Shown in pieces: positions 9,327-54,570 of a stretch of DNA of 64,000 bases. Under the pieces are notes generated by a model. That model saw nothing but the letters and a program-made list of their open reading frames with translations. It was not told the origin of the DNA and made no database searches. How positions within the stretch are numbered: position 1 is the stretch's first letter; the number at the start of each line of letters is the position of its first letter. The DNA comes from Candidatus Woesearchaeota archaeon. Lineage in GTDB: Archaea > Nanobdellota > Nanobdellia > SCGC-AAA011-G17 > ARS1403. The stretch is taken from positions 1,954-65,953 of the forward strand of contig JACPIN010000021.1 of assembly GCA_016188065.1 (NCBI GenBank). The letters run 5' to 3'. The position numbers and the translations under genes were made by a program.

Positions 9327-9327
9327 T

Positions 9328-12300: not shown

Positions 12301-14397
12301 GATCTTCCTCTTGGAAATGTTCCTGATTTCAACACGTTATTTAAATTTCAAAGAATAGGAAGGGATACTACTTATCAAAGTGCAATTGTTAATTTGTATA
12401 CTGTTTTAGGTGTATCTGGACCTGCAAGTGTTAGTAGTGGAGATTATGGATACTATCTTAAATGCAAGAAAGGTGAAAAAGAAGGAGAAACAATTGGGTA
12501 CATAAATTTGAATCTCCTAACTTCTCAGGGAATTTATCATTCAGAATGCAACACTAATCGAGAATGTGTTCAAGTAAGTGGTGCTGGAACTAATAAATGC
12601 GCTATTCCTGAAAACTGCCAAAATGTTCCTACAAGTCCAAGTCATAAAATTTGTGGAGCAAACGGAAGATGCATTAATGTTGTTGGAGCTGGAACAAATA
12701 CTTGCGACGATGATAATCAATGTACAGTTACTCCTCCTCCTGCGTTGCCAAAACTTACTATCAGAAGCATTTCTGCAGAGAATACTGATACTTTAGCTCC
12801 AACACTTAATGTGGAAACAATTGGAGGAAGCAGAATTGAAAAAGATGGAAGAGCTAGCTGTGTATATGGGACAAATGTTGATGAAGTAAGGGCTGGAAGA
12901 GGGAATTCATTTTCTAATGTTCAGCCACTTTTAGACTATACAAAGCATTCTGTAAATCTAGGCGGGTTGAAAGCCGGCGATAAAATTACTTATTTTATTA
13001 AATGCACTGATACTGTAAATTCAAATATATTTGATATTAAACAAAAAGAGATTAACATTAAAATCGTTGCTGTTGATCCAAATTTACCTAAACTAAGTAT
13101 CTCCAATTTTAAAGCAATTAACACTGATACAAGAAATCCGATGATTATTTTAGATACTACTGGCGGGGTTGAAAATGGGAGAGCTACATGCAAATATAGC
13201 AATAAACTTGAAACTGTTCAAGCTGCTGGGGGAAATTCGATGATTAAATCAACGCGTATATCTTCTGTTAATCATGGTGCTTTACTATCTGACTTAATCG
13301 ATGGGAGCCATAGTTATTTTGTAAGATGCGTCGATGATAAAAATGATAGGATTTATTCTGATGCTGAAATTCAGTTTATAGTTAAGATTCCAATTGAGAA
13401 AGCTCAATGCAGTGATGGGATAGATAATGATGCGGATGGATGTCTTGATTTGCAAGATAATGACTGCCAAAATGCTGCGGATAATACAGAATCTGGAAGC
13501 AATTGCCAAGCTGCTCCTCCGATACAATTAGCACCTTCAACCTTGCGTGTTGTCAGCAAAGGACCAAGTGGAATTCAAGCAGATACAAGGGTAAATCTTT
13601 CAGTTACTTTGAGCGGCGGACCTGGCAAATATGGACAAGATGCTGAATGCAGATTTACTAATATAGCTAATAATAATTTATTGGAAGGATATGATGCAAC
13701 CCTCTTCCCAGAGACATTAGACTTTGATCCTACTAATGTTGTTTTGGGATCTACTGTTTATCGCAATGAAATAAATTTGGATAGAATTGGAGATTATACT
13801 TACTATGTTAAATGCAAGGATAATCTTGGAGGGATAACTGTATTACAAACTATTCCATTTAAAGTAGAGATTCCTGCAAGCCAGCAGATTAGCATTGTCA
13901 GAAAATCTCCTGAAGGAGTTTATGGAAGCAAGAATGTTGCGATTGCAATTGAGACCAATGGCGGATTGGATAATGGGGCTAGCGTTAACTGTAATTATCA
14001 AGGGATTATTGGCGGTGGAATCTTAACCAAGCAGCAGATTGCTGGAGGCAGATATGCACATCTTGCAATTGTTCCTAATGTTCCTAATGGAAATTATACT
14101 GCTACAGTAAGTTGTGTTGATAGAGCTAACCAAATTGCATCCACTACTTTAAACATTGATGTGCAAGAGGATTTAATTGTGCCTGTTGAGCAACTGATTA
14201 TAACAAAGGGAAGCAGCAAGTTTATTACTGTTAGCGAGGCTGCTGAGTGCGAAGCTTCTACAGACAATGTTAATTGGCAGAAAGTCGGAAGCGACCAAAA
14301 TAAAAGGAAACATATTGTTACTTTGAGCGGAACTTATTACTTTAGATGCAAGGACTTGTGGAATAATCAGATGCAGACAATTATAATTCATCCATAG
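9328..14397 (+). CDS. giant (1689 aa) secreted protein with about eight Ig-like repeats that each carry a conserved Cys pair, plus Cys-knot-like linkers
   Basis: N-terminal TM/signal; recurring 'G..(A/T)(E/T)C(R/K)Y ... Y(F/Y)(V/I)(K/R)C.D' units; 'CSDGIDNDADGCLDLQDNDC' motif. Confidence 0.75.
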   Translation: MDKKIKLRLVWILLIIIFSSSMVVVPNALSYAGIDDAVVAGVGCITGAFLAGGSCRLYNPPKDSYDCEVCNKKIFGKCTEYQCRAIGRDCRFVPSLKDPKEGFCVAKGKPVYSSPDIISCGVIDIATMKPKIDVRQFKGSASSVSSGISTVGSGSDGLTPETFTGGAVTNIVYGCDLGELALNKQYVLILSTDRVAECRFSRTPNKRDLFEVDLFRDVYEDMPEEEAYGKILNNARNSGINLFTEAPNGLDHLWPIYFNNGQTPDQQWTPENIDQCNNGGCTWYARCADFDGNEMSRDYVFKFSLVDGVGDIDPPVILAFDPIDKFGEDKYTLPLGAKGELGVKFKVSDLTGVESCGYSDKIVGFEQMVSVNCRIPTENETTFNLGEQPFLKLCTVPLTGIKEGNNEFYFSCRDSSEKRNVNPVPYKYTIVGASKLSLQIKTPIDGSTIDGINDVLHVTTFGGIDGTALCKYNYAKVGGGVSGTNLVFASDTPGSENKKEHKQGINFLTENGEYILTINCADFNDPENTANGDLKIKFEKSQLVITKESPSDLIAERNPMLKVKTSGYDNGRAECRLYDKQSIAVFDDRSGVSMTSSGNLLHQFIFKDLTLGKHSSSVVCRSLDKNIQNSLEISFEIRENLPVACTSPTQCPSCSNDKYCATVIGSGKHLCDPNKVKQSCVNGFCSEVSCPTGDKFSTDYCEINPDPLCLSDKDKDRIADNLDCNDRLSNIGPCLIDQCKRCSEDESKIDNTGICVDIPNCTPKTPTRPPGTGTGQPTGQCKLTKAMWVDSTGRNQLSGNVNENTKVNVALQGQNCQGQSFNLELYELDDRGLLGKSFEKINTLDFPSQIVFGDQGAAFAEWGVKWLEDNGGINDDPEFVFRAANTNIESPVINVKKVLLPSGAKQGDSCKTNDNCDGKRDSSLACVKIDPNCPSQPVQSGDIRISIINPAPGKVFTSLPVEFGLDIKTGDQTLSKEECGYWFKFGRYQASDLPLGNVPDFNTLFKFQRIGRDTTYQSAIVNLYTVLGVSGPASVSSGDYGYYLKCKKGEKEGETIGYINLNLLTSQGIYHSECNTNRECVQVSGAGTNKCAIPENCQNVPTSPSHKICGANGRCINVVGAGTNTCDDDNQCTVTPPPALPKLTIRSISAENTDTLAPTLNVETIGGSRIEKDGRASCVYGTNVDEVRAGRGNSFSNVQPLLDYTKHSVNLGGLKAGDKITYFIKCTDTVNSNIFDIKQKEINIKIVAVDPNLPKLSISNFKAINTDTRNPMIILDTTGGVENGRATCKYSNKLETVQAAGGNSMIKSTRISSVNHGALLSDLIDGSHSYFVRCVDDKNDRIYSDAEIQFIVKIPIEKAQCSDGIDNDADGCLDLQDNDCQNAADNTESGSNCQAAPPIQLAPSTLRVVSKGPSGIQADTRVNLSVTLSGGPGKYGQDAECRFTNIANNNLLEGYDATLFPETLDFDPTNVVLGSTVYRNEINLDRIGDYTYYVKCKDNLGGITVLQTIPFKVEIPASQQISIVRKSPEGVYGSKNVAIAIETNGGLDNGASVNCNYQGIIGGGILTKQQIAGGRYAHLAIVPNVPNGNYTATVSCVDRANQIASTTLNIDVQEDLIVPVEQLIITKGSSKFITVSEAAECEASTDNVNWQKVGSDQNKRKHIVTLSGTYYFRCKDLWNNQMQTIIIHP

Positions 14398-14518
14398 AGA
14401 GAACTTTGCAAGTCTATTAACTCTTTTTGTATTAACAAACCAGCTAATCAATGGTTAGACTAATGTCACAAATTTATCATAGGAAGATTTAAATAGTATA
14501 ATTATTATTAGTATAATC

Positions 14519-15841
14519 ATGATTATACAGTTTAAGGATAGGGACAAAGAGCTTAAAGAAATAAAAGAGGTTTTGGATTCTAATAGATTTGAGTTTCTTA
14601 TTCTTTATGGAAGGAGAAGGATCGGGAAAACGGAGTTGGTTTTAAATGCTACCAAACATAGAAGAAGAGTTTATTATCTAGCAACTGGAGAGAAAAATTT
14701 GGAAAGATTTTACAATAGCTGTTTAAAATACGACCATAATATATCAAAATTGAAAAAGGACTGGGAGATTTTATTTGAGCATCTTAAAGACAAAGCAGAG
14801 GTCATTATTATTGATGAATTCCAGAATCTGATAAAAGAAGATAAAAATATATTACATTTATTCCAATCCATTGTAGATACTATCTTTAAAAGCTCTAAAT
14901 TAAAATTAATCTTACTTGGCTCATCAGTTTCAATTATAAGTTCCAAAGTTTTAAGCTATCAAAGCCCGTTGTATGGCAGAAGAACTGGTTCTATTAATCT
15001 CAAACCCGTTTCTTTTTTTGAATTGAATAAATTTTTTCCAGATAAAGACATAAATGAATTAGTTGATATCTATGGGTTTGCTGACGGCATTCCGTTTTAT
15101 CTTGTAAGGATAGAAAAAGAATTTTGGTCGTGGATTAAAGAAGAGATTGTTAAAGAAAGAAGCTTCTTAAGAGACGAAGTTGATTTTTTAATGAAATATG
15201 AATTTGAGGATGCAGGAACTTATAAATTAATCTTAGAGGCTATTTCCAATGGATGCAACAAACTCAATGAAATGAAGAATTTTATTAAGGTTGAGAGGAC
15301 AGATATCAGCCCTTATTTAAGGAACCTCATAGACGTTGGATTTGTAGAGAGAAAAGTTTCAATTACAGAGAATGTAAAATCAAGAAATGGAAGATATTAC
15401 TTATGCGATAATTTTCTTAATTTTTGGTTTCGCTATTTCTATCCAAATCTAAGCTCATTAGAAGAAGGAATTTTTGATGTCAATTTTATTAGAAAGGATT
15501 ATAGCTCTTATTTGGGGCTTGTTTTTGAAAAAATTTCAATGGATTTTTTTATCCGGAAAAATATTTTCAAATTCGATAAAATTGGAAAGTGGTGGCATAA
15601 AGACAAGGAGATTGATATTGTTGCTTTAAATAATAATGAGGGTAAAGTTTTTTATGCTGAATGCAAATGGAAAGAAAGGGTGGATGCTCTTAAAGTTTTA
15701 AACGGGCTGAAGGAAAAAGCTAAATATGTGAAATGGAATAGGAAAAAAGAGGAGCATTATTGCATTATTGCTAAAAGCTTTAAAGAGAAGATAAAGGAAA
15801 AGAATTTATTGTTGTTCGATTTGGAAGACATTAAAAGATGA
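14519..15841 (+). CDS. archaeal ATPase (Arch_ATPase AAA plus DUF234 C-terminal domain)
   Basis: Walker A 'YGRRRIGKTELV', Walker B 'VIIIDEFQ'; stop overlaps the next start. Confidence 0.8.
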   Translation: MIIQFKDRDKELKEIKEVLDSNRFEFLILYGRRRIGKTELVLNATKHRRRVYYLATGEKNLERFYNSCLKYDHNISKLKKDWEILFEHLKDKAEVIIIDEFQNLIKEDKNILHLFQSIVDTIFKSSKLKLILLGSSVSIISSKVLSYQSPLYGRRTGSINLKPVSFFELNKFFPDKDINELVDIYGFADGIPFYLVRIEKEFWSWIKEEIVKERSFLRDEVDFLMKYEFEDAGTYKLILEAISNGCNKLNEMKNFIKVERTDISPYLRNLIDVGFVERKVSITENVKSRNGRYYLCDNFLNFWFRYFYPNLSSLEEGIFDVNFIRKDYSSYLGLVFEKISMDFFIRKNIFKFDKIGKWWHKDKEIDIVALNNNEGKVFYAECKWKERVDALKVLNGLKEKAKYVKWNRKKEEHYCIIAKSFKEKIKEKNLLLFDLEDIKR

Positions 15842-16338
15842 AAAGAGGACAGACTCAGGAAATTTTTGTATGGCTTTTTGTTTTAATTGTTGCGGCTGCT
15901 ATTTTATTTTTTGGAATTAAACTGATAAAGAAGAGCGAAGGATTGAAAGACGAAGTCTTGATTGTTAAATTGTTTAATGATATAGATAAGAAATTAAGTC
16001 AGTATTACTTTTTGGATAAAGGAAGTAGTGGAGAAGAGAGATTTTTGCTGCCAAGAAATATTGAATGGGTCTGCTTCGCTAAAAAGGGGGCTATTAATTT
16101 TAATTATTTGTCTCGACCACATGTTGGTGGTGAAGATGGCAAACTGATGAGAGATATTTTAGGTATATTAGACGAAGGGACTTATGTTTTTGTCGGTCCT
16201 TTAAACTTATATGAGAATAACAGATTTAAATTAAATATTAAGATTAAAACTGAGGTTTTATGCAAAGAAGTTGTTAATGGTGTTTTGAGTTTGGATTTAG
16301 AAAACAAAGGTGTTAGCGATGGTATCGAGGTTAAATAA
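15838..16338 (+). CDS. class III signal peptide (prepilin-like) protein
   Basis: 'MKRGQTQEIFVWLFVLIVAAAILFFGI'. Confidence 0.7.
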   Translation: MKRGQTQEIFVWLFVLIVAAAILFFGIKLIKKSEGLKDEVLIVKLFNDIDKKLSQYYFLDKGSSGEERFLLPRNIEWVCFAKKGAINFNYLSRPHVGGEDGKLMRDILGILDEGTYVFVGPLNLYENNRFKLNIKIKTEVLCKEVVNGVLSLDLENKGVSDGIEVK

Positions 16339-17296
16339 AAAAGGTATTGCAATTACTTTTGACTGGATGTTTTCAATAGTTGCCGGAGTTTTGATATTTT
16401 CCTTTCTTATTTATTTTGCTGTGCAGAACACTGATTTATTTGGAAAAGTAACTGCTAGAATTGTTTCTGAAGAACTTGATATCTTATTTTCTGGATATGA
16501 AACTGCTCAAGTTAGTACTGTGCTAGATTTTGGCAGAGAAGCTACATTGGATTTTAGATGCGATGAGATAAATAAAAGACAAAAATTTATGATTAATGAT
16601 AGAGAAGGAAAAAATTTGTGGGGCAAGATAATTTTTGCTCCTAAGAATGTTAAAAGTGACAAAATAAATGTGGCTACTGCTAGTTGGAATGCCCCTTTCA
16701 GGGTTGCTAACTTTGTTTATTTGTGGGATAAAAGATATCTGTTAGATTATGATTCTGATTTAGAGCTTCCTGAATGGGTTAATCCTTCTGCTTCTGGAGA
16801 TATTAATATTAAATTTGCACGTGATTCCAGTTTGGCTTTGAGTTCGTCTTCAAGTTTTGATTGTTCATACAATTTCAGGACTTCGAATAATGAAGAATAT
16901 GATAAGGTGATTTATTATGATAAAAATCCCTCAGATGATGATGTTAGAGGGTATGTTTGCTTCAAGGGCAAAGAAAAATCTTTTTTCTATGGCGAGGCAA
17001 TGATGATTGGTGCTATTTTTTCTGAAAGCAAAATAGAGTTTGACTGTGTTAAGGATATTGCTGTTGATAGATTAAAGATTGTGAATGATATTTATACAAA
17101 GAAGGTAAGTAATTTGATTATTTCTGATAGAAGCTGTAATCCTAATTTTGGTGCTTCTTATAATAATGCAGTTCATGAGATTGATAATAATGGCATGCTA
17201 GAAAAAGATTTTGATTCATTTGACTTTGGTTATGTTAATAGGATTAGAAGTGCAAATCAAAATTTAATATCTACGGGGTGTGCAGGTGTCTATTAA
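16319..17296 (+). CDS. class III signal peptide-like protein (ATG at 16319 preferred over the GTG at 16310)
   Basis: 'MVSRLNKKGIAITFDWMFSIVAGVLIFSFLIYFAV'. Confidence 0.6.
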   Translation: MVSRLNKKGIAITFDWMFSIVAGVLIFSFLIYFAVQNTDLFGKVTARIVSEELDILFSGYETAQVSTVLDFGREATLDFRCDEINKRQKFMINDREGKNLWGKIIFAPKNVKSDKINVATASWNAPFRVANFVYLWDKRYLLDYDSDLELPEWVNPSASGDINIKFARDSSLALSSSSSFDCSYNFRTSNNEEYDKVIYYDKNPSDDDVRGYVCFKGKEKSFFYGEAMMIGAIFSESKIEFDCVKDIAVDRLKIVNDIYTKKVSNLIISDRSCNPNFGASYNNAVHEIDNNGMLEKDFDSFDFGYVNRIRSANQNLISTGCAGVY

Positions 17297-17780
17297 TCAT
17301 AGAGGACAATTAGAAATAGGAATTACTACAATGGTTTTGATAGTATTTATTGTCTTACTGTTATTGAGCTTAATTCTTTATTTTAAGTTTACTTATTTAG
17401 AACTAGAAGAAGATAGAACGACTTTGTTAGACCAAAAATATAACAGCATTTTAAGCGTGATTATTGGCTTGCCAGAATTTAGATGCAGCAGAGGTGGGAT
17501 TGAAAGTGAATGCTTGGATGCTGCTAAACTCTCTGCATTTTCTGGAGTTTATGCAAGCAACAAGGAACATTATGGTAATATATTTGGCACTGTCAATGGA
17601 ATTTGGGTCGATGTTCCTGTTAATGATGTGAATAATTTGAATTATCCTGATCAAGGAAGATTTTCAGTATATGGAAAAGCTGATTTAAAAGGAGGGATTT
17701 ATTCTGTTCCTGTTTCATTATATTATCCTGAATCAAAAAAATATAAAATAGGAATTTTGAAGATTAGGGGGGAGTTATGA
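17280..17780 (+). CDS. class III signal peptide (prepilin-like) protein (GTG start)
   Basis: 'NHRGQLEIGITTMVLIVFIVLLLLSLILYF'. Confidence 0.6.
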   Translation: MQVSINHRGQLEIGITTMVLIVFIVLLLLSLILYFKFTYLELEEDRTTLLDQKYNSILSVIIGLPEFRCSRGGIESECLDAAKLSAFSGVYASNKEHYGNIFGTVNGIWVDVPVNDVNNLNYPDQGRFSVYGKADLKGGIYSVPVSLYYPESKKYKIGILKIRGEL

Positions 17781-18202
17781 AACGAGGTCAGGCTGAGATT
17801 ATCGGACTTGTGATAGTTGTTTTGTTGCTTGTGTTTGCATTGATATTTTTTGTTAAAATAAAGGGTTTTGAAGATGATAATGAGAGCAGACTGATAAGAA
17901 GCAATTTGAGAGCGAATAGCGCCTTGAATGCGTTGATGAAAGTGCATATTGAAAACGATAAAAAACAGATGAAGGACTTGGTTGATGACTGTATAACTGC
18001 TTCTAAAGATTGCGATAGTGTTGAGAGAAAGTTAAGAGAAGCTTTGCTTTATGCTTTTGAAGACAATATTAATTATAATCTTACGGTGTATAGGGGAGAT
18101 GTAGCAGATATAAGTCTTGGTAGAACTTGTAAGAGCAGCATAAACGCTAGTCCGTTTATTATAAGATCTAATGGTAAAGTTGAACTTAAAATTTGTACTT
18201 AG
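17777..18202 (+). CDS. class III signal peptide (prepilin-like) protein
   Basis: 'MKRGQAEIIGLVIVVLLLVFALIFFV'; ATGA overlap with the upstream gene. Confidence 0.7.
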   Translation: MKRGQAEIIGLVIVVLLLVFALIFFVKIKGFEDDNESRLIRSNLRANSALNALMKVHIENDKKQMKDLVDDCITASKDCDSVERKLREALLYAFEDNINYNLTVYRGDVADISLGRTCKSSINASPFIIRSNGKVELKICT

Positions 18203-18265
18203 TTAGTAAGTTAGTTAGTAATTTACTAAGAAAACTTTATATATCTTGAAATAATTGATGAATTG

Positions 18266-18388
18266 ATGAAAAAGTACCTTCTTCTTATTGAGGATGAGAA
18301 ACTTTGGGAAAAATTCAAAGAATCTATTAAAAACGATATCAATAGCGAAATTATTGAGATGATTAAAAAGAAGGTGAAAGAAAGATGA
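18266..18388 (+). CDS. small RHH-like protein, 40 aa; not in the ORF track
   Basis: Translates to 'MKKYLLLIEDEKLWEKFKESIKNDINSEIIEMIKKKVKER'; stop overlaps the next start (AGATGATT), as at 6299-6436. Confidence 0.5.
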   Translation: MKKYLLLIEDEKLWEKFKESIKNDINSEIIEMIKKKVKER

Positions 18389-20340
18389 TTTTTTGGGGTA
18401 AACGGGGGCAGATGACGCTGTTTATTATAGCTGGCATAGTTATCCTATTCGCTGCCTTCTTTATTGGCTACTTGCAGAATGAAAATTTTAGGCAGAGAGT
18501 TGAGAGCCAACTCTTTGGAGTTAGCGTTGTTCCTGAGCAGGCGAAAGGAGTTGTGAGCTACATAAATAATTGCATAGAGAACATTGCTAGCGACGGGGTT
18601 GAACTCTTAGGATTTCAGGGAGGGTATCTTGATGTTCCAAATTCTTTGAGTTCGAGAGAGTATTTACAGCCAGATCCTTTAAGCAAAGTTCCTTACTGGG
18701 TTTATGGAAATAAAGTTGTTGTTCCCTCTCCAGGGCAGATGGAATCCCAGTTAAAGAGCTATATAGATAGAAGGGCGAATGTTGAATGTGATTTCAATGC
18801 TTTTAGCGATTATGAATTTAGTTCTGAACAGATATCTACGAATGTTAAAATATCTGACGGAGGGATTTTAGTTAATTTAGATTCTGATATCGATGTTAAT
18901 ATAAAAGACAGTGTTTATTCTTTAGATGATTATATTAGTGCAAGCATTCCTGTTGATTTAAGTTTGTTATATGATCTTGCTGTTGATATTGTTAATAGGG
19001 AAATGAGAGAAGGCAAAATAGGAAGAGCTCCTTTTGAGTTGGCAACAAAGGAGTTGATAGCAAGCCATTCTAAAGATGAAAATAGTAGACTTAGCATTCC
19101 CCCTATTGGTAAATTAGATTTTAGCTGTAATCCTAAAACTTGGCTGATGGAAAATGTGAAAGAGAATATAAAAGAAATTTTGAGTGATAATATGAGATTT
19201 TTGCGTGTTGAAGGTGCTGGTAATCTTGACTATGGGGAGGATTATGTTAACCTATTTGTAGATGATGTTTTTTCGTCAGAACATTTAGATGTTGGGATAG
19301 ATTTTAACTACAATAAAGAATGGCCTTTATTTTTAGACATTTATCCAAGAAATGGAAGGGTGCTGAAACCAGATACTTTGAAAATTGGACTACCGTTTAT
19401 TTCTTTATTCTGTACTACAACATATAACTTTAGATACACTTTAAGATATCCGTTAATGGTTAATTTGGAAAATGACGGGTTTATATTTAGGTTTCCTATT
19501 GAGGTATTTATTTTAGATAATTATGCTGGGAGAGATATTGAAGGGGATGTTTCTCGTGTCAGTTTTGCTGACATAGAAAGTGAATTTTGTAATAAAGGGC
19601 AGAGATTGAGTGAAGACATAAACATTGTTACAATTGATGCAACTAATAGACAACCGCTGTCTGATGTTCAAGTTATGTATGTTTGCGGTGTAAACAACTG
19701 CGTTATTGGAGATACTAAATTGGAAAGTGGAGAGGTTAGACTTAATAGTAAATTTCCTTTGTGTTACAATGGTGAGATAAGATTAAGCAAGGAAGGTTAT
19801 GGAGAGTTTACTCAGGAATTAACAACTCTAAATTCTAAAAGCACGAGAATATTTGGCGTTATGAAACCTTTTATAGAAAAAGAAATTGAGCTTAGAGTTA
19901 TTGATCTTAGCGATGGGATTACTAGTGTAAGAGAGTTAAATGAAAATGAGATAGCTAGTGTGCAGTTTAATATTTTGGAGAATGGCATGATTAAAAATCA
20001 GATTGGTGTTGTATTCGAAGGGGATGGTATCGAGAAAATTGAGTTGTTGCCTGAGCAAGAATATAATATTTTGATAAATTTAGTTTTGAATGATAAAGTT
20101 GTTATTCCTAAAGGTAAATATGGAGAACAAGAAATTCCCTCTCAGGAATTGGAAAATATTTTGCTAGGTGGAGCAGATTTCAATGCTTACACCTCAGAGG
20201 AGGATTTGATGAAGGACAAGATAATTATTTTTGCCTTGTCTAATGGTATTCCGAAAAATTATCAGGACTATATTGAGGGCTTTGATATGAAAGCATTAAG
20301 CGAATTAAATCAAGATAAACTGGAGTTGAGGTTTGAATGA
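18385..20340 (+). CDS. large (651 aa) class III signal peptide protein, paralogous at its N-terminus to 6433..7212
   Basis: 'GKRGQMTLFIIAGIVILFAAFFIGY' versus 'EKRGQSTIFIIAGIVIVIAAVLVVF'. Confidence 0.7.
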   Translation: MIFWGKRGQMTLFIIAGIVILFAAFFIGYLQNENFRQRVESQLFGVSVVPEQAKGVVSYINNCIENIASDGVELLGFQGGYLDVPNSLSSREYLQPDPLSKVPYWVYGNKVVVPSPGQMESQLKSYIDRRANVECDFNAFSDYEFSSEQISTNVKISDGGILVNLDSDIDVNIKDSVYSLDDYISASIPVDLSLLYDLAVDIVNREMREGKIGRAPFELATKELIASHSKDENSRLSIPPIGKLDFSCNPKTWLMENVKENIKEILSDNMRFLRVEGAGNLDYGEDYVNLFVDDVFSSEHLDVGIDFNYNKEWPLFLDIYPRNGRVLKPDTLKIGLPFISLFCTTTYNFRYTLRYPLMVNLENDGFIFRFPIEVFILDNYAGRDIEGDVSRVSFADIESEFCNKGQRLSEDINIVTIDATNRQPLSDVQVMYVCGVNNCVIGDTKLESGEVRLNSKFPLCYNGEIRLSKEGYGEFTQELTTLNSKSTRIFGVMKPFIEKEIELRVIDLSDGITSVRELNENEIASVQFNILENGMIKNQIGVVFEGDGIEKIELLPEQEYNILINLVLNDKVVIPKGKYGEQEIPSQELENILLGGADFNAYTSEEDLMKDKIIIFALSNGIPKNYQDYIEGFDMKALSELNQDKLELRFE

Positions 20341-23300
20341 GATTAAAAATAATTGCTTTGCTTATTGTACTTTTAATAGCAGGAGTTAACTTTCATGCAT
20401 CTATTGCTTTAGCCCAGATTCAAGGAAGCACTGGAAGTCCTCAATTTGGTAATGCTTATGACAGCGATAGTGACGGGATATGTGATGCGCCTAGAGGAAG
20501 TGCAAAGCATCAGGGACAAAGTGGATTTAGTTCACTTGGATGCAATGATAATGCATATGGTGATTTGTGCCCTGGTACCTTTTTGAATGATAGGCCTGTT
20601 GGAAGTAGCTCTACTAATAGCGGATGTGGTCCGAGCCAGACTGCTAGATTGATAAATTTTTGGAGTGTTTCGAGAGGCGAATTAACGCCTAAAACATTAA
20701 AAGTAAATTGGATTACCGATACTAGAAATGGTGTTTTGGTTTATCAAATAATTAACCTTATTAGAAATCCTGTATTTTCTAATCGCAAGATTGAGTTGAG
20801 AGATGTTAGTGTAAGCTGTGATTCTGGGACTGGGATAGATAAAACTAGTGGGCAGTATAGGGAAATTCCTGGGGGGTTTATTTCTGATGCTAGAATTGTT
20901 CCTGCGGATGATACGCAAAATGAGGGGAGAGCGATTCAGTTTAGTGTGAGACAGAGATCTGATCAAGATGTGAGAACTAAGAGTGCAATTGCCCTTGCTT
21001 CAGAAAGGATAAAAGGCATAGATGAAATTAAAACAACTTGTAGAATAACAATAAACCAATGTGAGAAAGATGGTAAAACAGGAGACTGTTTTCCAATGTA
21101 TCCTGCTGAACAAGATGAAATAGATTTTTTTATTCCTATTGATACTTTGGCTGTTCAGCCTCCAGAGTTTGCATTGGCTGCTGGCATTGATTTTGCTGAA
21201 AAGACAATTAAGATTACAGATGATTTGATTCATAAGTTTACTAAGATTTATCAATTTACATTAAAGTGGTGCAGTTATTCTATTGCTGCTGTATTGGCTA
21301 CTAAGTTTCTGAAATTTATTACCGGTGGTTTTGGTGATTTAGCCGAGTTGATTTGGTATGGCCCTGAAGGATTGAGGAGATTTGGTTTTGAAGAGAAGAG
21401 CTTTGTTATAAGTGGGAGAAGTATGTGTGCTGCTGCTCTCTGTCCTAAGAACTGGTGTAAGTTTGCCAATATTGAAACTGGTCAGAAGCAAGTTCAGGAA
21501 TATGTTGATTTGGATAAGGATGGAAAACCAGAGACACCTGTATGGGAGCAAGATGAGAAAGGGAATATTAAATATTATCCTGGAAAAGATGGAGGAATAA
21601 CAACTACTCCAATTCCCAAACTAACAAGTCAAAAAATTACATTAGGAAGCAAAACTGTAAATATTCAGGATAGTTTAATCTTGAGTGCTGGATGTGGCTG
21701 TATTAGTGGAATTTTAACTAATTTATATGAGATTAGAGCTATTGCCGATTCTTGGAGAACTTGTTTGCTTGAGGCTAAGACTGGAGGGGCTTATACTGCC
21801 AGATGTGATCAGTTATTGAATCATGGAATTTGCAAATTTGTTTTACAGGAGCTTGATTCTTTCCATGGAACTGATTTATTAAAGAGAGCGTTTAGCGTTG
21901 ACAAAGGGGGGGTTCTAGGTGATGGAGAAACTAGAGGTGCGACTGAAGATGCCAGAATAGCCCAAGGACTAAAAGAAAAAGTTAAAGACTCTGTAGATGA
22001 TGCTAAGAGGTTTGCTAAGGATGATTTGGTTGAATTAGGAATGGCAGCTGGCGGTGGTGTTTTGGGTTATAATGAATTGCAATTAGAGAGTACAATTTGT
22101 TCACTTGCAATATATCAAAGACTTCCACAGATAGATGCATTTACAAGATTTGATTTTAACAGACCTGTATTAAAAACAAGCATTTCATTAAACTGGGATT
22201 CTAAACCTTTATTCCAAACGCCTACAGGAGAAAGGATGTTTGAGTATAGTCTTGACTGGATGATTTTAGCTGGAAGGGATAATTTGAGATATGAAGTTTA
22301 TTTGGAATCTTTTGATGGAAAGAGAAGCCCGAGATTGGATAGACAAAGCGGTTATTTGAATAGAGCAGGTGATTATCATAGTGACTTTGTTCAGATTTTA
22401 GACACTACTGATTATACAAGGGCATGTGTTAGCATTCCTAATGAATTTCCTGAACCGAGATGTTTCCCAATTGGGAAGGGAGGAGACGATACTATTTTTG
22501 GCGAGTTTAAAGTATATGGTGTTGAGTTAGATACAGATAAGGATGGGATGCCGGATGAATGGGAATTAGAAATGGGATTTAAACCCGATGATGCAAGAGA
22601 TGCTGCTCAAGATGAAGACATGGATGGTTTGAGTAATTTGAGAGAATATTCTTTAGGAACAAATCCTAAATCTGCTGATGATCCTGGTAACAAGCCGCTT
22701 AGTGTCGAATTTGCTCGAAGTGATTGCAGGGCAGTGTTCAATAAAGACATTGAATTCCTTGGCAAGACTGAAATTATTCCTCGATATCAACTAGGAGATA
22801 TGATTGAAGTAAATCCGGTTAGTTTAGTAACTATAACAAGGCCTAGCGACGGGGTGCAGATAAAAGTAGAGATTACTGGTGAGGGTGTTAATTTCAATAA
22901 AATTGTTAGAATTAATGCTCATGATGTTGCCAATAATGCCCGGTTTGTTGTGTGGGGTATTCCCAAAATAGGAGCAGAGGTTCCTTATGGTGGTATGTAT
23001 AATATTAAATTTAGTCTAGTTAAAAGTGCTGCTCTGAGCGATCCGTTATGTGGAGATGAAAGAGGATTAACTATTAATTCAATAAGGGAAAAAAAGATTG
23101 TTATTTATGATCCGGCTTTTAGCGGTTGTTCTGATTTTGGCGGGCATGATATCTCAAGACAGCAAGCTTGTATTTCTGGAAACGGAAACGTTCAAATTAA
23201 AATTGATGAATGCGTAGCTGATGGAAAACTTGTTGAGTATTCTTGCAAGGAAAATCAATGCGTTTCACAACTTGTTGGATGCCCTACTGGAAGTGTTTGC

Positions 23301-23981
23301 CAGAATGGAAGGTGTACTTTAGCAAAAGAAGTTAAGATCCCTATTATCCCTATTCCAACTGAGCCTGCTAAAGTTATTCCTGTACCTACACTTATTCCTC
23401 CCGGACCTTATGCTACAGAGCCTACGACTGGTACTATCTTTGAACAAACCAAAACCAATCTGGGCTATCCCGGAGGAGAGACATTTAATTATGTTAGGAA
23501 TACTGTGAAAGAGATTTTTGGTGATTCAGCAGCTACAGCATTACCTTTAATATTAGGAATGATTACCCAGGAATCAAAGGGAAACAGAGAAACCAAGCCG
23601 TCTTCAAAAGGAGCAATCGGTTTAATGCAGATTATGCCTGACGCTCAGAGTGATGTTAACTCTTACTTAAGAGGAAAAGGGATACAAGCAACTAAGGAAC
23701 GGGGGATATGGCAGGACAATGTTTATATCGGAGTTTTGTATTTCAAATTTCAAATTGATAAATATAAAGATTTTAAGTCTCAAACTGACAACTATAATGA
23801 GGTTAAATTAGCATTGGCTGCTTATAATGCCGGACCTGGATTTGTCGACAGAGCATGTACTACTCTTAAAAATTTTGAAGAGTGCAAATCTTTCTTGCCG
23901 AAGGAAACTCAAAATTATGTACCTTCTGTTATGAAGCATGCAGAGGCATGGAGAGGAGAGCTTAAAATACCTGGTGTTTGA
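20337..23981 (+). CDS. 1214-aa secreted protein with TSP3-like Ca-binding repeats and a C-terminal lytic transglycosylase (SLT/GH23) domain
   Basis: Signal peptide; 'DTDKDGMPDEWE...DEDMDGLSNLREYSLGTNP'; 'GMITQESKGN', 'GAIGLMQIMP', 'LAAYNAGPGFV'. Confidence 0.8.
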   Translation: MRLKIIALLIVLLIAGVNFHASIALAQIQGSTGSPQFGNAYDSDSDGICDAPRGSAKHQGQSGFSSLGCNDNAYGDLCPGTFLNDRPVGSSSTNSGCGPSQTARLINFWSVSRGELTPKTLKVNWITDTRNGVLVYQIINLIRNPVFSNRKIELRDVSVSCDSGTGIDKTSGQYREIPGGFISDARIVPADDTQNEGRAIQFSVRQRSDQDVRTKSAIALASERIKGIDEIKTTCRITINQCEKDGKTGDCFPMYPAEQDEIDFFIPIDTLAVQPPEFALAAGIDFAEKTIKITDDLIHKFTKIYQFTLKWCSYSIAAVLATKFLKFITGGFGDLAELIWYGPEGLRRFGFEEKSFVISGRSMCAAALCPKNWCKFANIETGQKQVQEYVDLDKDGKPETPVWEQDEKGNIKYYPGKDGGITTTPIPKLTSQKITLGSKTVNIQDSLILSAGCGCISGILTNLYEIRAIADSWRTCLLEAKTGGAYTARCDQLLNHGICKFVLQELDSFHGTDLLKRAFSVDKGGVLGDGETRGATEDARIAQGLKEKVKDSVDDAKRFAKDDLVELGMAAGGGVLGYNELQLESTICSLAIYQRLPQIDAFTRFDFNRPVLKTSISLNWDSKPLFQTPTGERMFEYSLDWMILAGRDNLRYEVYLESFDGKRSPRLDRQSGYLNRAGDYHSDFVQILDTTDYTRACVSIPNEFPEPRCFPIGKGGDDTIFGEFKVYGVELDTDKDGMPDEWELEMGFKPDDARDAAQDEDMDGLSNLREYSLGTNPKSADDPGNKPLSVEFARSDCRAVFNKDIEFLGKTEIIPRYQLGDMIEVNPVSLVTITRPSDGVQIKVEITGEGVNFNKIVRINAHDVANNARFVVWGIPKIGAEVPYGGMYNIKFSLVKSAALSDPLCGDERGLTINSIREKKIVIYDPAFSGCSDFGGHDISRQQACISGNGNVQIKIDECVADGKLVEYSCKENQCVSQLVGCPTGSVCQNGRCTLAKEVKIPIIPIPTEPAKVIPVPTLIPPGPYATEPTTGTIFEQTKTNLGYPGGETFNYVRNTVKEIFGDSAATALPLILGMITQESKGNRETKPSSKGAIGLMQIMPDAQSDVNSYLRGKGIQATKERGIWQDNVYIGVLYFKFQIDKYKDFKSQTDNYNEVKLALAAYNAGPGFVDRACTTLKNFEECKSFLPKETQNYVPSVMKHAEAWRGELKIPGV

Positions 23982-24784
23982 TTATGAATTTGAATTTTTT
24001 AAAATTATTTCTGGAAAGCCTGAAAATATTAAAGAACAAGAAAATATTTGCCTTATTCGGAATTGAGTTTCTTTTCTTTTTGTTATTGATGATTCTTGCT
24101 TTAGTAACGGTGACTTCTGTTGCTGAAGACGTTAATCAACTAAGAAATTTCCAGCAGGAATTTACTGTCGATGAGAATGCGAGCGCGAATTATCTGTATG
24201 AAAATCTTCTTTCTCTTTCCAATATATTAAATGACCTTATCAAAATAGTTATTGCTGCATTTATAATCCTCTTCTTTATCTCGGGTTTATTTAATGGGAT
24301 TTTATGGAAAGCGAGCGTTAATTTGATACATGGAAAACCACTGTTTAAAGATTATAATAAAAGATATTTCCTTAATTTTTTCTTGTTAACTTTCATTTGG
24401 TTTGTTGCTTTTGCTGGTGTGTTTTACTTACTTTATCAATATGGATTCAGCTATGGCGTTTTTGCAATAATTTTAATTTTGTTTTTCTATTCTGCTTGGA
24501 TTAATTTTAGCTGTTATGCGCTTGATAAAAACTTCAGTTCAATTATGAGGGGATTTGTTTTTGCAATAAAGAAACTTTATATTTTTGTACCTGCCTTTGT
24601 GCTGCTTGCAGTTATTTTATTTTTAGGCTCTTATGCTTTTGGAGTGTTTAATAATTTTTTTGTTTCTTTTTTGGCAAGTATATTTTTAGTATTTATTTTT
24701 GCATGGTTCAGAATTTTCTTGATAACGATTTGCGGGGAACAGGATTCGAAACCTGCCAAGAAATCTGCTGATAATAAATATTAA
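23978..24784 (+). CDS. multi-pass membrane protein, last gene of the cluster
   Basis: about six hydrophobic helices; start overlaps the upstream stop. Confidence 0.6.
   Translation: MIMNLNFLKLFLESLKILKNKKIFALFGIEFLFFLLLMILALVTVTSVAEDVNQLRNFQQEFTVDENASANYLYENLLSLSNILNDLIKIVIAAFIILFFISGLFNGILWKASVNLIHGKPLFKDYNKRYFLNFFLLTFIWFVAFAGVFYLLYQYGFSYGVFAIILILFFYSAWINFSCYALDKNFSSIMRGFVFAIKKLYIFVPAFVLLAVILFLGSYAFGVFNNFFVSFLASIFLVFIFAWFRIFLITICGEQDSKPAKKSADNKY
24732..24757. repeat. degenerate copy of the 3' end (acceptor plus T-arm) of the nearby tRNA-Leu gene; candidate att-type direct repeat
   Basis: 'gcggggaacaggattcgaaacctg' versus 'gcgggagacaggattcgaacctg' at 25441; same orientation. Confidence 0.5.
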
Positions 24785-25405: not shown

Positions 25406-25440
25406 TTTAATAATGAATGATTTCAGTCTTTTTAAATATT

Positions 25441-25537
25441 GCGGGAGACAGGATTCGAACCTGTGAAGGCACTAAGCCATATGGTTTCTTTGAGATTTAC
25501 CTAAGCCATACCCGTTTGGCCACTCCGGCACTCCCGC
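25441..25537 (-). tRNA. tRNA-Leu (anticodon UAG), type II, with a 14-nt intron at the canonical 37/38 position
   Basis: Hand fold: acceptor GCGGGAG/CTCCCGC, 3-bp D stem, anticodon stem TATGG/CCATA, loop CT-TAG-G|intron|A, variable arm GGC-TTAGT-GCC, T arm ACAGG-TTCGAAT-CCTGT. Confidence 0.85.
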
Positions 25538-27068: not shown

Positions 27069-27290
27069 GTAATTCCCTCCTGATTCTCTCGTAATAAGAG
27101 TGTATTTAAAACTTGCTAATCTCTTGCGTTAAGCAGGATTTAAAAATATATCCTAAATGGACAACAAAGCGATTAAAACTTATTATTTTATTATTCTTAG
27201 AATTAATAGGAAGCCTGGCATTACCCTACAGAGCCATACCAGCGCAGAAAACCGATAAATTTTTATAGGTCCTTTTATTATATAAATTGC

Positions 27291-27378
27291 AATAGGGAAA
27301 AGCGACCTGACGAATCCCGTGCTCCGTAAGGATGATGCGGTTAGTAGGATAGATGGACGCCCTTACCCTATTATTACA
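27291..27378 (+). ncRNA. candidate structured small RNA, possibly an H/ACA-type guide
   Basis: GC-rich island in an AT-rich spacer; closing stem AAUAGGG/CCCUAUU; internal GUAA-capped hairpin; 'GAUGAUG' K-turn-like element; ACA 3 nt after the stem; TTTTTATA box about 25 nt upstream. Confidence 0.3.
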
Positions 27379-27398
27379 ACCTTTTAAATTTTCTGCTT

Positions 27399-27857
27399 TC
27401 ATTTCTTTAACCTATTAATATTTAGCCAATTATCTAATACTAAGCTTAGTGAATACTCAACAGTTCTCCTCTTTAATTGACTTTCTTTTAAGACTTTGAT
27501 ATTATCTCCATCTATAATCTCAATAAATTTCCCAAAGGCGGAATATTGTTTATCATCAATAGATAAGAGAATAATGCAGTTAGAATGCTTTTTAATGAAC
27601 TCGCCAACATCCATAAATATACTTATGTTATCTCTTATATTTCTTATTTTTCCTTTTATAAAATATTGCTGAAGTTTTTCTTTTTTGAAGGTATTTCTGA
27701 CGTTTTTTATATACAAACTTTTATTTCTTGCTTCCCGATAATGCCTGAATTTTTTTGTTTTAGATAACAACTCTTTTATTTTTCCCTTATGAATAATGTT
27801 ATAACCAATTAAGTTCTCTGAAAAATCAATAAAAATATAGTAATCAAATTCCTTCAT
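27399..27857 (-). CDS. hypothetical protein
   Basis: ORF only, 152 aa. Confidence 0.5.
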   Translation of the reverse strand: MKEFDYYIFIDFSENLIGYNIIHKGKIKELLSKTKKFRHYREARNKSLYIKNVRNTFKKEKLQQYFIKGKIRNIRDNISIFMDVGEFIKKHSNCIILLSIDDKQYSAFGKFIEIIDGDNIKVLKESQLKRRTVEYSLSLVLDNWLNINRLKK

Positions 27858-28009: not shown

Positions 28010-28092
28010 TTTTTCCTTTGGACACGATTTCTTTTTCCTAAAAAGAAAGTGTGAGAGGAAAGGCAAATGGAAAACTTCGTTGTCCATCAGCG
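28010..28092 (+). repeat. copy 1 of an ~80-nt conserved structured element (inverted copy at 54571..54653), upstream of rps8e
   Basis: Near-identical to the reverse complement of 54571-54653; contains an A/U hairpin, a GAGAGGAAAGG tract and an ATG. Confidence 0.75.
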
Positions 28093-28140
28093 CCAGCGCC
28101 ACCATAAGTTTTATAAGCATCTCTTTTTGTGTTTTATTTT

Positions 28141-28512
28141 ATGAAGAGCCAACTCAGATCAAGAAGGAAGGCTAGCGGCGGGAGATACAAGGCAATCAGA
28201 AAGAAAAAGTTGAGAGAGCTTGGAAGGGATCCGCTTTATACTTCAATAGGGAAGAAGAAAGTTAATCTCTATAGGGGTGCTGGCGGGAACATTAAAAGAA
28301 GTTTAGTTGTGGCTGATGAAGCTAATATCTTTGACGGCAGCAAACACAAGAAGGTCAAGATTTTAAGCGTTATCGGAAATAGTGCCAACAGGCATTTTGT
28401 CAGAAGGAATGTTTTGACTAAGGGTGCTGTCATTAAAACCGAGATAGGCGATGCTAAAGTTGTTAACAGACCTGGGCAAGAAGGGCAAATAAATGCAGTT
28501 TTGATCAGATAA
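28141..28512 (+). CDS. rps8e: 30S ribosomal protein S8e
   Basis: 'RSRRKASGGRYKAIRKKKLRELGRDP...'; ATG at 28141 preferred over the GTG at 28129. Confidence 0.9.
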   Translation: MKSQLRSRRKASGGRYKAIRKKKLRELGRDPLYTSIGKKKVNLYRGAGGNIKRSLVVADEANIFDGSKHKKVKILSVIGNSANRHFVRRNVLTKGAVIKTEIGDAKVVNRPGQEGQINAVLIR

Positions 28513-35805: not shown

Positions 35806-36326
35806 TGATTAAAACAAGGATTATATTATGTCTTCTGTTTGTATTTTTTGCTGTTTCTGTTTTAGCTAAAGGGTCCTTACCTGTTTATATAGTGAGCTTA
35901 ACTTTGCATGATGATTCTAGCATAATTTTGGATAAAATTTATTTATCAAATGTTTTTAAGGAGAGAGATTTTTTGGATGGGCCATTTATTTTGAGGGTTG
36001 TTTCTATTGATGGCAATACATTATATATTGATAGATTCGATTTTGAAGGCATTGCTCCTCCAAGAGAATGGTTTGATGAAAATGGCAAACAGATTGTTTT
36101 TCCTAAGAAATTGACCAAGCCAACAAAGGAATTAGTATCGCAGCCTATTAGTAAAGTTATCCTTACCCTTCCTTATTTTAAAGAAGGAAAGGAGATACAA
36201 ATTTACAATCCTAATGGTGAAAATGCCTTAAATATAGACTTAAGCCTTTATTGTAAAGGAGAGGGGTGTTTGAGAAAAGGTTCTTTATTTAATAGAGTTG
36301 TTAGATGGTTTGGTAACTTTTTTTAA
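35805..36326 (+). CDS. secreted hypothetical protein
   Basis: Signal peptide 'IILCLLFVFFAVSVLAKG'; start overlaps the upstream stop. Confidence 0.5.
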   Translation: MIKTRIILCLLFVFFAVSVLAKGSLPVYIVSLTLHDDSSIILDKIYLSNVFKERDFLDGPFILRVVSIDGNTLYIDRFDFEGIAPPREWFDENGKQIVFPKKLTKPTKELVSQPISKVILTLPYFKEGKEIQIYNPNGENALNIDLSLYCKGEGCLRKGSLFNRVVRWFGNFF

Positions 36327-36355
36327 TATCTTGAAGCTATAAATTTTTATAAACT
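36324..36355. repeat. left copy of a 32-nt direct repeat (30/32 identical) flanking a TA cassette
   Basis: 'taatatcttgaagctataaatttttataaact' versus 37165-37196 'taatatctcaaagctataaatttttataaact'. Confidence 0.85.
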
Positions 36356-36691
36356 TATTTCAATCTTTTTCTTCTCTAAATTAGGATGCACTTTTAATTT
36401 TGTTTTTGGATTGTTCAGGCTGAAAGTTTTTGTTAAGTCTTTTGGAAACGTCATTCCCCAGCTATGTCCTATCTTTATCGGATGTTTTATGTACTCTAAT
36501 TCCAGCTCTCTGGATTCTATTTTAGAAATTGCTTTCATTGCTAAATCCTCTGTAAATATTTTTTCTTTACATTTTGGACATTGCCTAGCTTCGAACTTAA
36601 TTCCGTTATACTCTATATAGGTCTTTCTCATTGGCATATTGCAGCTTATACACAATCTTTCATTTACCATCTTATTCCCTACCACTTTCAA
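36347..36691 (-). CDS. Zn-ribbon plus AbrB/SpoVT-like putative antitoxin
   Basis: 'CISCNMP...CPKCKEK' then 'IGHSWGMTFPKDL'. Confidence 0.55.
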   Translation of the reverse strand: MKVVGNKMVNERLCISCNMPMRKTYIEYNGIKFEARQCPKCKEKIFTEDLAMKAISKIESRELELEYIKHPIKIGHSWGMTFPKDLTKTFSLNNPKTKLKVHPNLEKKKIEISL

Positions 36692-36950
36692 TAATTACGG
36701 TTTTAATTAAATACTTTTTATAATTTTCAAATATCTTTTCTTTGCATATGACATAAAATGATAAATTATCTTTGAAGTACTGGTTAAATGTCACATAGTT
36801 TGCTGACAGGTGCTTTCTTTTTGCTAATCTTCCCAGCCTAACAGTGCTAAATGTCCTTTCTTTTGTATCATAATAATCCAGCCCGAATTTTTGTCCCCTT
36901 TCTAACATTCTGAAAAATGCATGAGATTCTATGTCTATTATTATCTTCAT
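36672..36950 (-). CDS. DUF4258-like putative toxin
   Basis: 'SHAFFRMLERG' motif; overlaps the downstream gene. Confidence 0.5.
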   Translation of the reverse strand: MKIIIDIESHAFFRMLERGQKFGLDYYDTKERTFSTVRLGRLAKRKHLSANYVTFNQYFKDNLSFYVICKEKIFENYKKYLIKTVIIESGRE

Positions 36951-37164
36951 GGCTCATTATAATTTATTTAAATAAATATATAAAACTTTTGGTTAAACTT
37001 TTTGTAAAACTATTTTTATGATGGAAAACTATTTAATGTGTTATATTTCTCAATAATGAATCTTTCTAGTTTATCATTTTTTTACTTTTGAATATCCTGC
37101 TTAATATATGTAACCCTACATATCTTTGAATGTTCCTATCTTGTAGGGTTATATTGCTGTTGTA

Positions 37165-37196
37165 TAATATCTCAAAGCTATAAATTTTTATAAACT
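37165..37196. repeat. right copy of the 32-nt direct repeat; also holds the TATA-like box of the downstream gene
   Basis: See 36324..36355; lies about 20 nt upstream of the ATG at 37217. Confidence 0.85.
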
Positions 37197-54327: not shown

Positions 54328-54521
54328 GATGCTAATCTCCAGAGGATTTGGATGATGAAGCCAATTATTCCTATCAAAGCGATCCCTATTGCTGAAACTT
54401 TCACTACTGCTTTAAACTCAGTCATTGTCGGCTTCTTCGTTATCCTGAAAACACGCATAGATTCTAAAATGAAAGATTTTAAGCGCGTTAACAGAGTTGG
54501 ATTTTGCTGAAACTCTTCCAT
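54324..54521 (-). CDS. secE: protein translocase subunit SecE (Sec61 gamma)
   Basis: 'RITKKPTMTEFKAVVKVSAIGIALIGIIGFIIQ'; conserved secE-spt5-rpl11 order. Confidence 0.8.
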   Translation of the reverse strand: MEEFQQNPTLLTRLKSFILESMRVFRITKKPTMTEFKAVVKVSAIGIALIGIIGFIIQILWRLAS

Positions 54522-54570
54522 CAAGAAATTTGTAGAAATTGGGTTTATAAATTTAACCGCTCACTATGCT

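Follow-up and report, generated by a model that had tools for sequence, protein, structure and literature searches.

Two near-identical sequences upstream of rps8e and secE in a Woesearchaeota contig as probable members of a dispersed, modular, hairpin-forming intergenic repeat family

REP/BIME elements (repetitive extragenic palindromes and bacterial interspersed mosaic elements) occur in enterobacteria and pseudomonads, where REPINs are mobilised by RAYT transposases, and BOX elements, built as boxA-boxB-boxC, occur in Streptococcus pneumoniae. Other described systems with some likeness to the sequence studied here are the miniature inverted-repeat transposable elements (MITEs, including Correia/NEMIS), the palindrome-associated elements derived from IS200/IS605 (PATEs) and the attC sites of integrons. 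In this study, we analysed a 64,000-nt stretch of a Candidatus Woesearchaeota archaeon (assembly GCA_016188065.1, contig JACPIN010000021.1, positions 1,954 to 65,953), called the window below, in which two near-identical copies of an 82-nt element lie upstream of rps8e (copy 1) and secE (copy 2). The best-supported explanation is that the element belongs with the dispersed repeats of the REP/BOX/MITE kind, as a modular, hairpin-forming one that has not been described before, and we give a probability of roughly 0.55 to the two window copies being paralogous members of a high-copy family of such intergenic repeats. The family is confined to one genus- or family-level lineage of Woesearchaeota (DPANN), tiny archaea of groundwater.

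A repeat search of the window returned the inverted pair 28011–28092 (+) and 54571–54652 (−), 82 nt long, 94% complementary and 26,478 nt apart, as by far its longest and best repeat. Sub-patterns of 27 and 35 nt matched the window at the two copies only, with three mismatches allowed, and dinucleotide shuffles gave an expectation of 0.00 chance matches. Pairwise alignment (A1) gave sharp borders, the identity beginning at TTTTT(C)CTTTGGACAC and ending at CATCAGCG. All internal differences lie in hairpin loops: one base in the loop of an A/U hairpin (CCT in copy 1, TCT in copy 2) and the triplet TTC or GCA, which folding places as the triloop of a second hairpin, AUGGA-A-AAC[NNN]GUU-G-UCCAU. 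The distance from the end of the copy to the start codon is 48–49 nt for both rps8e and secE. A first-pass annotation made from the letters of the window had described inverted copies of about 80 nt, differing at a ttc/gca triplet and sitting in the same orientation some 50 nt upstream of a gene, and the present figures agree with it on each of these counts.

More copies were found in relatives, as that annotation had proposed to look for. Scanning of genome collections yielded a third copy in a Candidatus Woesearchaeota metagenome-assembled genome (L001), between an S6e-like gene and the gene for aIF2-gamma. This copy is preceded directly by some 100 N (L001:6831–6929), probably a scaffold gap due to the repeat, and the element has AAAGCAGAAGTTTTAA on either side. 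A metagenome scan that demanded an exact 20-mer gave 22 loci, about 14 of them true relatives and 8 chance matches, and the covariance model that had also been proposed (R1) was built and recovered seven more, more diverged copies, bringing the number of distinct copies in related Woesearchaeota contigs to about 22. At the gathering score, Rfam gave no match for the element in the window; a permissive Rfam search around copy 1 returned only chance-level matches (E 5–7), and three loci with canonical copies gave none at E ≤ 1. Collections of phages, plasmids and viral contigs held no match to the element, and no description of such an element was found in the literature on intergenic repeats, RNA motifs and MITEs of DPANN and Woesearchaeota.

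The unit common to the family is a core of about 55 nt, AA-AGGAAAGG-CAAAU-[GGAAAAC(C)-loop-(G)GUUGUCC]-[AUC-A-GC-loop-GC-GRU]-UAAA, which comprises the purine box AGGAAAGG, a hairpin P2 with a fixed A.G mismatch, a hairpin P3 with a bulged A, and UUAAA; an A/U hairpin module on the 5′ side is optional. Three modules can be told apart. Module A is a T-rich, A/U-rich long hairpin (P1), module B is the purine box with the 7–8 bp hairpin P2, and module C is the 5-bp hairpin P3 followed by UUAAA. The order A-B-C is found in both window copies, in L001 and in L028 (16154–16260), and most copies are B-C. L010 and L011 (1691–1751) have a different A/U hairpin in front (A′-B-C), and in L022 (1060–1117) A is joined directly to C with no B. 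Among copy 1, copy 2, L001, L028 and L022, module A varies in its loop only. The parts of the element and its flanks in the window are the following.

27155–27178 (+): truncated element remnant (AAATGGACAAC AA AGCGATTAAAA) on the LSM side
28010–28054 (+): copy 1 module A, a T-run and the long hairpin P1 (also in copy 2, L001, L028 and L022); outer pairing ACAC 28022–28025 with GUGU 28049–28052, A/U stem UUUCUUUUU 28028–28036 with AAAAAGAAA 28040–28048, loop CCU
28055–28085 (+): copy 1 module B, the purine box AGGAAAGG (28056–28063), CAAAU, then P2 with GGAAAAC 28069–28075, loop UUC 28076–28078 and GUUGUCC 28079–28085, A.G mismatch
28086–28100 (+): copy 1 module C, remodelled and truncated (AUCAGC GCCA GCGCC)
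28101–28118 (+): rps8e core promoter (ACCATAAG TTTTATAA GC), outside the element and kept in relatives without it
28141–28512 (+): rps8e coding sequence, flanking gene (Pfam PF01201)
54324–54521 (−): secE coding sequence, flanking gene (orthologue PF00584), followed by spt5/nusG and L11
54536–54551 (−): secE core promoter (TTTATAAACCCAATTT), outside the element and kept in all relatives
54552–54577 (−): copy 2 module C, P3 (AUC-A-GC ... GC-GGU) with the 11-nt loop GAGCAUAGUGA, then UAAA
54578–54608 (−): copy 2 module B, the purine box and P2 with GGAAAAC 54594–54588, loop GCA 54587–54585 and GUUGUCC 54584–54578
54609–54652 (−): copy 2 module A, hairpin P1 with loop UCU
54672–55781 (−): ftsZ, upstream flanking gene, whose stop codon abuts the secE promoter in relatives

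The core reaches beyond the 3′ border of the 82 nt and, of the two window copies, is complete in copy 2 only. Module C of copy 2 lies outside the 82 nt first reported and is covered by the R1 match (54550–54610, 66.6 bits); its 11-nt type of P3 loop recurs in L011 (1691–1751). Judged against the spacers of L038 and L035, module C of copy 1 is without the canonical GRUUAAA tail and is joined straight onto the rps8e promoter region. The 5′ half of the 82 nt (GGACACGAUUUCUUUUU...) is missing from most relatives. The LSM promoter region of the window aligns with that of L035 as far as the remnant at 27155–27178.

Support for the structure comes from comparison across copies, because the folding energy of single copies is unremarkable, only mildly better than that of shuffles (z −1.9 to −2.4). 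In a hand-built alignment of 16 copies (A2), 90% of the cells were paired, against 33–56% with slid partners, and three P3 pairs had changed on both sides. An alignment of 20 copies (A4), which was made by fitting to model R1 and hence leans toward the structure, had 90.8% of cells paired against 31–51%, a covariation score above 500 of 500 shuffles, and five doubly changed pairs, mostly in P3. P3 pairing is preserved as GC/GC, AC/GU, GU/AC and UUU/AAA; in L011b and L028b one base is gone from each P2 arm together, and in L035 the foot pair of P2 is A-U in place of G-C. The A.G mismatch at the centre of P2 is preserved throughout, as is the bulged A of P3, and the P2 loop measures 3, 5 or 6 nt. 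On the written strand there are 12 G.U cells and 5 A.C cells, suggesting that this strand is the one that folds better, as RNA or as single-stranded DNA. The element is therefore a structured repeat, as had been proposed, with stems that covary across copies. The long-range pairing GGACA...UGUCC put forward in the first-pass annotation did not survive the comparison: UGUCC pairs with GGA(A)AAC of P2 in all copies, and many copies without GGACAC still form P2.

Some P2 triloops recur across genomes, namely TTC, GCA and GTA, three times each (window 28076–28078 and 54585–54587; L008, L014, L016, L020 and L028). Three reverse-complement pairs (TTC/GAA, GTA/TAC and TTT/AAA) occur among 11 loop types, with about 0.9 expected; by this rough count the excess is not significant, and loop flipping by template switching within the palindrome was not retained. 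Several known motifs were also considered and rejected. For a K-turn (an L7Ae site) in module A, the GA/GA arrangement agrees by eye with the window copies and is lost in L028 (GUGUGAAGGGG). A tRNA, split-tRNA or anticodon reading of TTC/GCA meets a variable triloop, and neither ARAGORN nor Rfam places a tRNA there. Window copies read by eye lack the boxes required for C/D box, H/ACA, hammerhead and bulge-helix-bulge motifs on either strand. The copies resemble an origin-recognition box (TGGAAAAC) and are dispersed, numerous and not near cdc6.

The neighbours of the copies are functionally unrelated. They include toxin-antitoxin genes, an HNH endonuclease, a proteasome beta subunit, an RNase J-like gene, membrane proteins, sepF, a response regulator and aIF2-gamma, besides rps8e and secE. 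A downstream gene could be called for 21 copies, of which 15 run in the direction of that gene and 6 are opposed by a convergent one; nine copies have a divergent gene on their upstream side. In the co-directional cases the element mostly ends 29–65 nt before the start codon (13 of 15), directly abutting the BRE/TATA (transcription factor B recognition element and TATA box). Spacers in these genomes are only 35–90 nt, so that a tolerated insertion must lie beside a promoter, and tight spacing need not mean function. The only free room is the few bases that separate the end of one gene (or a promoter that points away) from the core promoter of the leaderless gene that follows, and there the copies accumulate. 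The specific link to translation and secretion genes drawn in the first-pass annotation is thus not supported, and what was found is largely the situation that it had named as speaking against its own proposal, a MITE-like repeat placed at random with respect to genes. Its list of options had included a MITE-like repeat or recombination substrate, and in this it is supported.

Orthologous spacers differ in their content. The ftsZ-secE spacer is empty, at 35–75 nt, in L024/25/27, L029/30 and L041 and contains the element in the window; in L028 a RelA/SpoT gene has been inserted, and a degenerate copy lies behind it. In L043 the same spacer holds an unrelated classic MITE instead (L043:7744–7866), about 80 nt long, whose terminal inverted repeats (GGCTTTGTGTAA / TTACACAAAGCC) measure 12 bp and whose target duplication (AACTGATTA) measures 9 bp. 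The spacer is an insertion hot spot. The RelA/SpoT-domain gene lies on the opposite strand right after the ftsZ stop codon (L026:11110–12526 and L028:11143–12219); the FtsZ protein of L026 is identical to that of L024, from which this insertion is absent. The LSM-rps8e spacer is empty, at 86 nt, in L038–40, and carries a diverged copy in L035–37. In L034 it shows a tail remnant and, beyond an HNH gene, a second copy; in the window it holds the remnant, two orphan open reading frames (ORFs) and copy 1. These ORFs (27226–27857, −) encode 58 and 152 aa with no Pfam match; flanked by the remnant and copy 1, they are missing from relatives, and the HNH endonuclease gene of L034 occupies the equivalent site. 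Copies are therefore gained, lost and truncated, and they are kept alike within a genome. The window copies are 94% alike and the orthologous copies in relatives are far more diverged, which points to recent spread or gene conversion within the genome.

Contig depth is in line with a high copy number. Word depth was taken from the contigs of four groundwater DNA runs; as a total for every similar contig of a community, and not for a single genome, it was 20–50 times as high on the element as on the unique flanks. Each stretch was matched by 40–59 contigs, mostly on the element and with flanks that disagree; contigs of the same population end inside the repeat, and loose contig ends run on past 28092 into the canonical module C (AAGCGGTTAAAA). 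With about 2.5 copies in the 64 kb of the window, a genome of 1 Mb would have some 40, a figure that fits the depth ratio. No alternative junction or empty allele was seen at either site in the four runs, in which contigs break inside the repeat and minor forms would be invisible. The first-pass annotation had also suggested that the inverted copies might mediate inversion of the 26.5 kb between them. Recombination of 82-bp copies is possible in principle, and gene order gives no sign of an inversion: the window junctions LSM/rps8e-TFB... and ...L11-spt5-secE/ftsZ have the same order as in relatives, indicating that the segment is in its ancestral orientation.

Several observations weigh against the view that the copies are members of a mobile repeat family. 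Terminal inverted repeats were not found: the left end TTTTTCTTTGGACAC and the right end GCGGTTAAA are not inverted repeats of each other, and neither are the ends of the short copies, AGGAAAGG...GRTTAAA. No unambiguous target-site duplication was seen at the element sites compared; the filled secE spacer reads GATTAA/...GCGGTTAA/A and the empty one GATTAA/AAAC, a possible TTAA duplication that looks the same as the end of the element itself. TAA or TTAA is often the last word of the left flank, which is weak evidence in DNA of about 70% A+T. A Pfam search of ten copy-adjacent proteins revealed no transposase or recombinase (the matches were one HNH endonuclease, DUF5678 and a zinc finger, and one membrane protein had weak, sub-threshold matches of coiled-coil type), and none was recognised by eye among the window ORFs, where no domain search was made. 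The depth ratio, being a sum over a community, does not count copies in one genome, and the conservation of the scanned 20-mer stretch is partly a matter of ascertainment, an exact match having been required. The strand bias (15 of 21 co-directional), the narrow 29–65 nt spacing, and the persistence of the element at rps8e and secE in genomes whose neighbour proteins are about 85% identical could each reflect selection for a local function, and the strong conservation of the unpaired purine box and the A.G mismatch would fit recognition by a protein.

The last points bear most directly on a host-functional cis element, each copy of which would be kept at its intergenic boundary by selection for local action, possibly as a terminator or insulator (through the oligo-T of module A), as a structure upstream of a leaderless core promoter, or as a hairpin that protects transcripts reading through. 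Oligo-T is where archaeal RNA polymerase terminates, and module A carries TTTCTTTTT on both strands; the abutment of 13 of 15 co-directional copies on BRE/TATA, the persistence at the rps8e and secE promoters of different genomes and the conserved unpaired bases also speak for such a role. Yet the same promoters are found in close relatives without the element, module A is missing from most copies, six of the 21 copies face a convergent gene, and the nine with a divergent upstream gene have nothing to terminate. Moreover, spacers of 35–90 nt force any insertion to lie beside a promoter, and the unrelated MITE of L043 is in the same place. We therefore regard a cis element as unlikely. A multi-copy small RNA gene, each copy being its own unit with an RNA of 45–105 nt (P2 and P3, with or without P1), would account for the covariation of both hairpins and for G.U pairs that favour one strand, and many short copies show, by eye, A/T-rich, TATA-like octamers about 9–14 nt ahead of their purine box, which would place the start near AAAUGG. 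Such a start would leave the conserved purine box untranscribed and misfits the long form, however, and TATA-like strings are common in spacers of 70% A+T. An RNA gene family is made decidedly unlikely by the lack of an oligo-T terminator after P3 in most copies, by modules that are shuffled, truncated and lost, and by a load of about 40 copies per genome equivalent, which would be unusual; there is also no Rfam match, and a look for RNA-seq runs containing the window, a related locus or the element returned none.

Regulation of the genes downstream, either through a 5′ leader or riboregulator with a translated upstream ORF (uORF) or through a protein bound to double-stranded DNA, agrees least with the data. 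Archaeal promoters have a TATA box centred near −26. The promoters of rps8e (ACC(A/G)TAAGTTTTATAAGC) and secE (TTTATAAACCCAATTT) are conserved in relatives both with and without the element. They separate the element from the start codon, and their TATA box ends some 23–24 nt ahead of the ATG; judged from this spacing, the rps8e and secE mRNAs look leaderless or nearly so. With conserved promoters on its 3′ side, the element is placed upstream of the transcription start and outside the leaders of both genes, so the leader or riboregulator role advanced in the first-pass annotation finds no support. Nor do the copies lie in the 5′ untranslated regions of a consistent set of genes, given their unrelated neighbours and the convergent cases. 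What the first-pass annotation had read as a Shine-Dalgarno-like box and a uORF is correct in its sequence details in both copies: AGGAAAGG stands 3–7 nt before an AUG, the uORF of copy 1 (ATG 28067–28069, 25 codons) ends in a TGA at 28142–28144 that overlaps the rps8e ATG at 28141–28143 (ATGA), and the uORF of copy 2 runs for 10 codons to a TAG. Across the family neither start codon nor frame is conserved, because the frame changes beyond the third codon with the length of the P2 loop (3, 5 or 6 nt) and the diverged copies in L035 and L028 have no AUG at this position; the end of the uORF has no constant relation to the next gene. Neither a leader peptide nor control of rps8e and secE through a leader with a translated uORF is thus at all probable. 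A small protein read from the opposite strand (MDNEVFHLPFL...) was rejected likewise, its frame being disrupted by the same variation in loop length. As to a double-stranded DNA operator, the P2 palindrome ATGGAAAAC-N3-GTTGTCCAT would bind a dimeric transcription factor, and it is indeed imperfectly palindromic and adjoins promoters. However, the distance between the half-sites varies by +2 bp (a CC/GG extension) and −2 bp (both arms shortened) with pairing kept, and P3 changes in sequence while its pairing stays; the element thus behaves as a stem rather than as half-sites contacted by a protein, and we give an operator hardly any credence.

Taken as a dispersed repeat, the element may work as follows. 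The hairpins of the written strand would be the feature recognised, in single-stranded DNA while the element spreads or recombines, or in the RNA of read-through transcripts, presumably by a trans-acting protein that binds the folded strand; such recognition would explain why the stems covary and the loops drift. Spread might proceed by single-strand transposition, through an enzyme encoded elsewhere and acting in trans, or by recombination between copies. Effects on neighbours would then be side effects, with no dedicated rps8e or secE circuit: module A, with its oligo-T tracts, could terminate archaeal transcription coming from either side, and transcripts that read through would carry the hairpins. 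A far bolder version, which we consider very unlikely as a whole, is that DPANN have an undescribed system of single-strand recombination or transposition, guided by hairpins, which recognises the A, B and C modules, inserts at TTAA(A)-like words upstream of core promoters and carries cassettes of small accessory genes. Such a system would be functionally akin to attC/IntI or to IS200-type Y1 and unrelated to them in sequence, and its putative cassettes would be the two orphan ORFs of the window, the HNH gene of L034, the RelA/SpoT gene of L028 and the toxin-antitoxin pairs of L014 and L022.

Four other features of the window were recorded. A 98-nt tRNA at 25440–25537 (−), found by Rfam (47 bits) and missed by ARAGORN, is probably an intron-containing archaeal tRNA gene. 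A 37-nt direct repeat of 89% identity, containing GCTATAAATTTTTATAAACT, lies at 36319–36355 and 37160–37196 (+) and flanks two small minus-strand genes (36347–36950), whose L035 orthologues are a DUF7479 zinc-ribbon protein and a 92-aa partner; it looks like a duplicated promoter around an inserted two-gene cassette. The free-standing gene at 52141–52932 (+), beside the L11 operon, has an orthologue in L024 that matches HTH_38 and LAGLIDADG_3 in Pfam, and by this likeness it resembles a homing endonuclease gene; it is present in relatives without a nearby copy of the repeat. A long co-oriented cluster at 7209–24784 (+) encodes large membrane or secreted proteins (705, 1689, 651 and 1214 aa), and the orthologue of the 1214-aa protein has an SLT lytic transglycosylase domain in L035 and L038.

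DPANN genomes are among the smallest and most compact of cellular genomes, and about 40 copies per genome equivalent would be a notable load. The repeat abuts the core promoters of essential leaderless genes and marks where these genomes tolerate and exchange DNA, and its covarying hairpins, with their fixed mismatch and bulge, form a comparative data set for finding the protein that recognises them. For annotation, the element should not be labelled a ribosomal-protein leader, a secE leader or a small ORF.

Set against what is generally known of the described systems, the element is like an integron attC site, where recombination acts on a folded single strand, in its extrahelical or mismatched bases and its variable loop, and one to three small accessory genes, toxin-antitoxin pairs for example, are often flanked by its copies. 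It differs from attC in having no R″/R′ core (RYYYAAC / GTTRRRY; the P2 arms read GGAAAAC/GUUGUCC), two separate short hairpins instead of a single long bipartite stem, copies in mixed orientations and not in a co-oriented array, and no integrase in the DNA scanned. PATEs derived from IS200/IS605 likewise have subterminal imperfect hairpins, lack inverted terminal repeats and are asymmetric between the strands; they also have no target duplication, of which the element showed no unambiguous case. Their flanks often end in the same short A/T word, to which the TTAA/TAA flank of the element corresponds only suggestively. Unlike PATEs, short B-C copies are without the left-end hairpin, and no TnpA/TnpB with matching ends was found among the scanned neighbours or, by eye, among the window ORFs. 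With MITEs, including Correia/NEMIS and the one in L043, the element shares its small size, non-coding nature, multiple dispersed copies and presence or absence at orthologous spacers; the L043 MITE has terminal inverted repeats of 12 bp and a target duplication of 9 bp, whereas the element showed no terminal inverted repeats and no unambiguous target duplication.

BOX differs in its unrelated sequence, its place in another domain of life and its larger modules. It resembles the element in being modular with variable module content (here A-B-C, B-C and A-C), in its stable hairpins, in lying near gene starts, and in having neither coding capacity nor a known mobilising enzyme. In contrast to REP/BIME, the element has no GTAG-type 5′ tetranucleotide, no inverted doublets, and no RAYT/Y1 gene among the Pfam-scanned neighbours or, by eye, the window ORFs; its host is an archaeon, and it combines two or three different hairpins with a conserved unpaired purine box. 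Both are high-copy, strictly intergenic, imperfect palindromes of about 35–100 nt whose stems covary around a conserved mismatch or bulge, and both are clustered and alike within a genome; the secondary effects of REP/BIME on termination and mRNA stability may have their counterpart here. In behaviour, the element is closest to REP/BIME and BOX.

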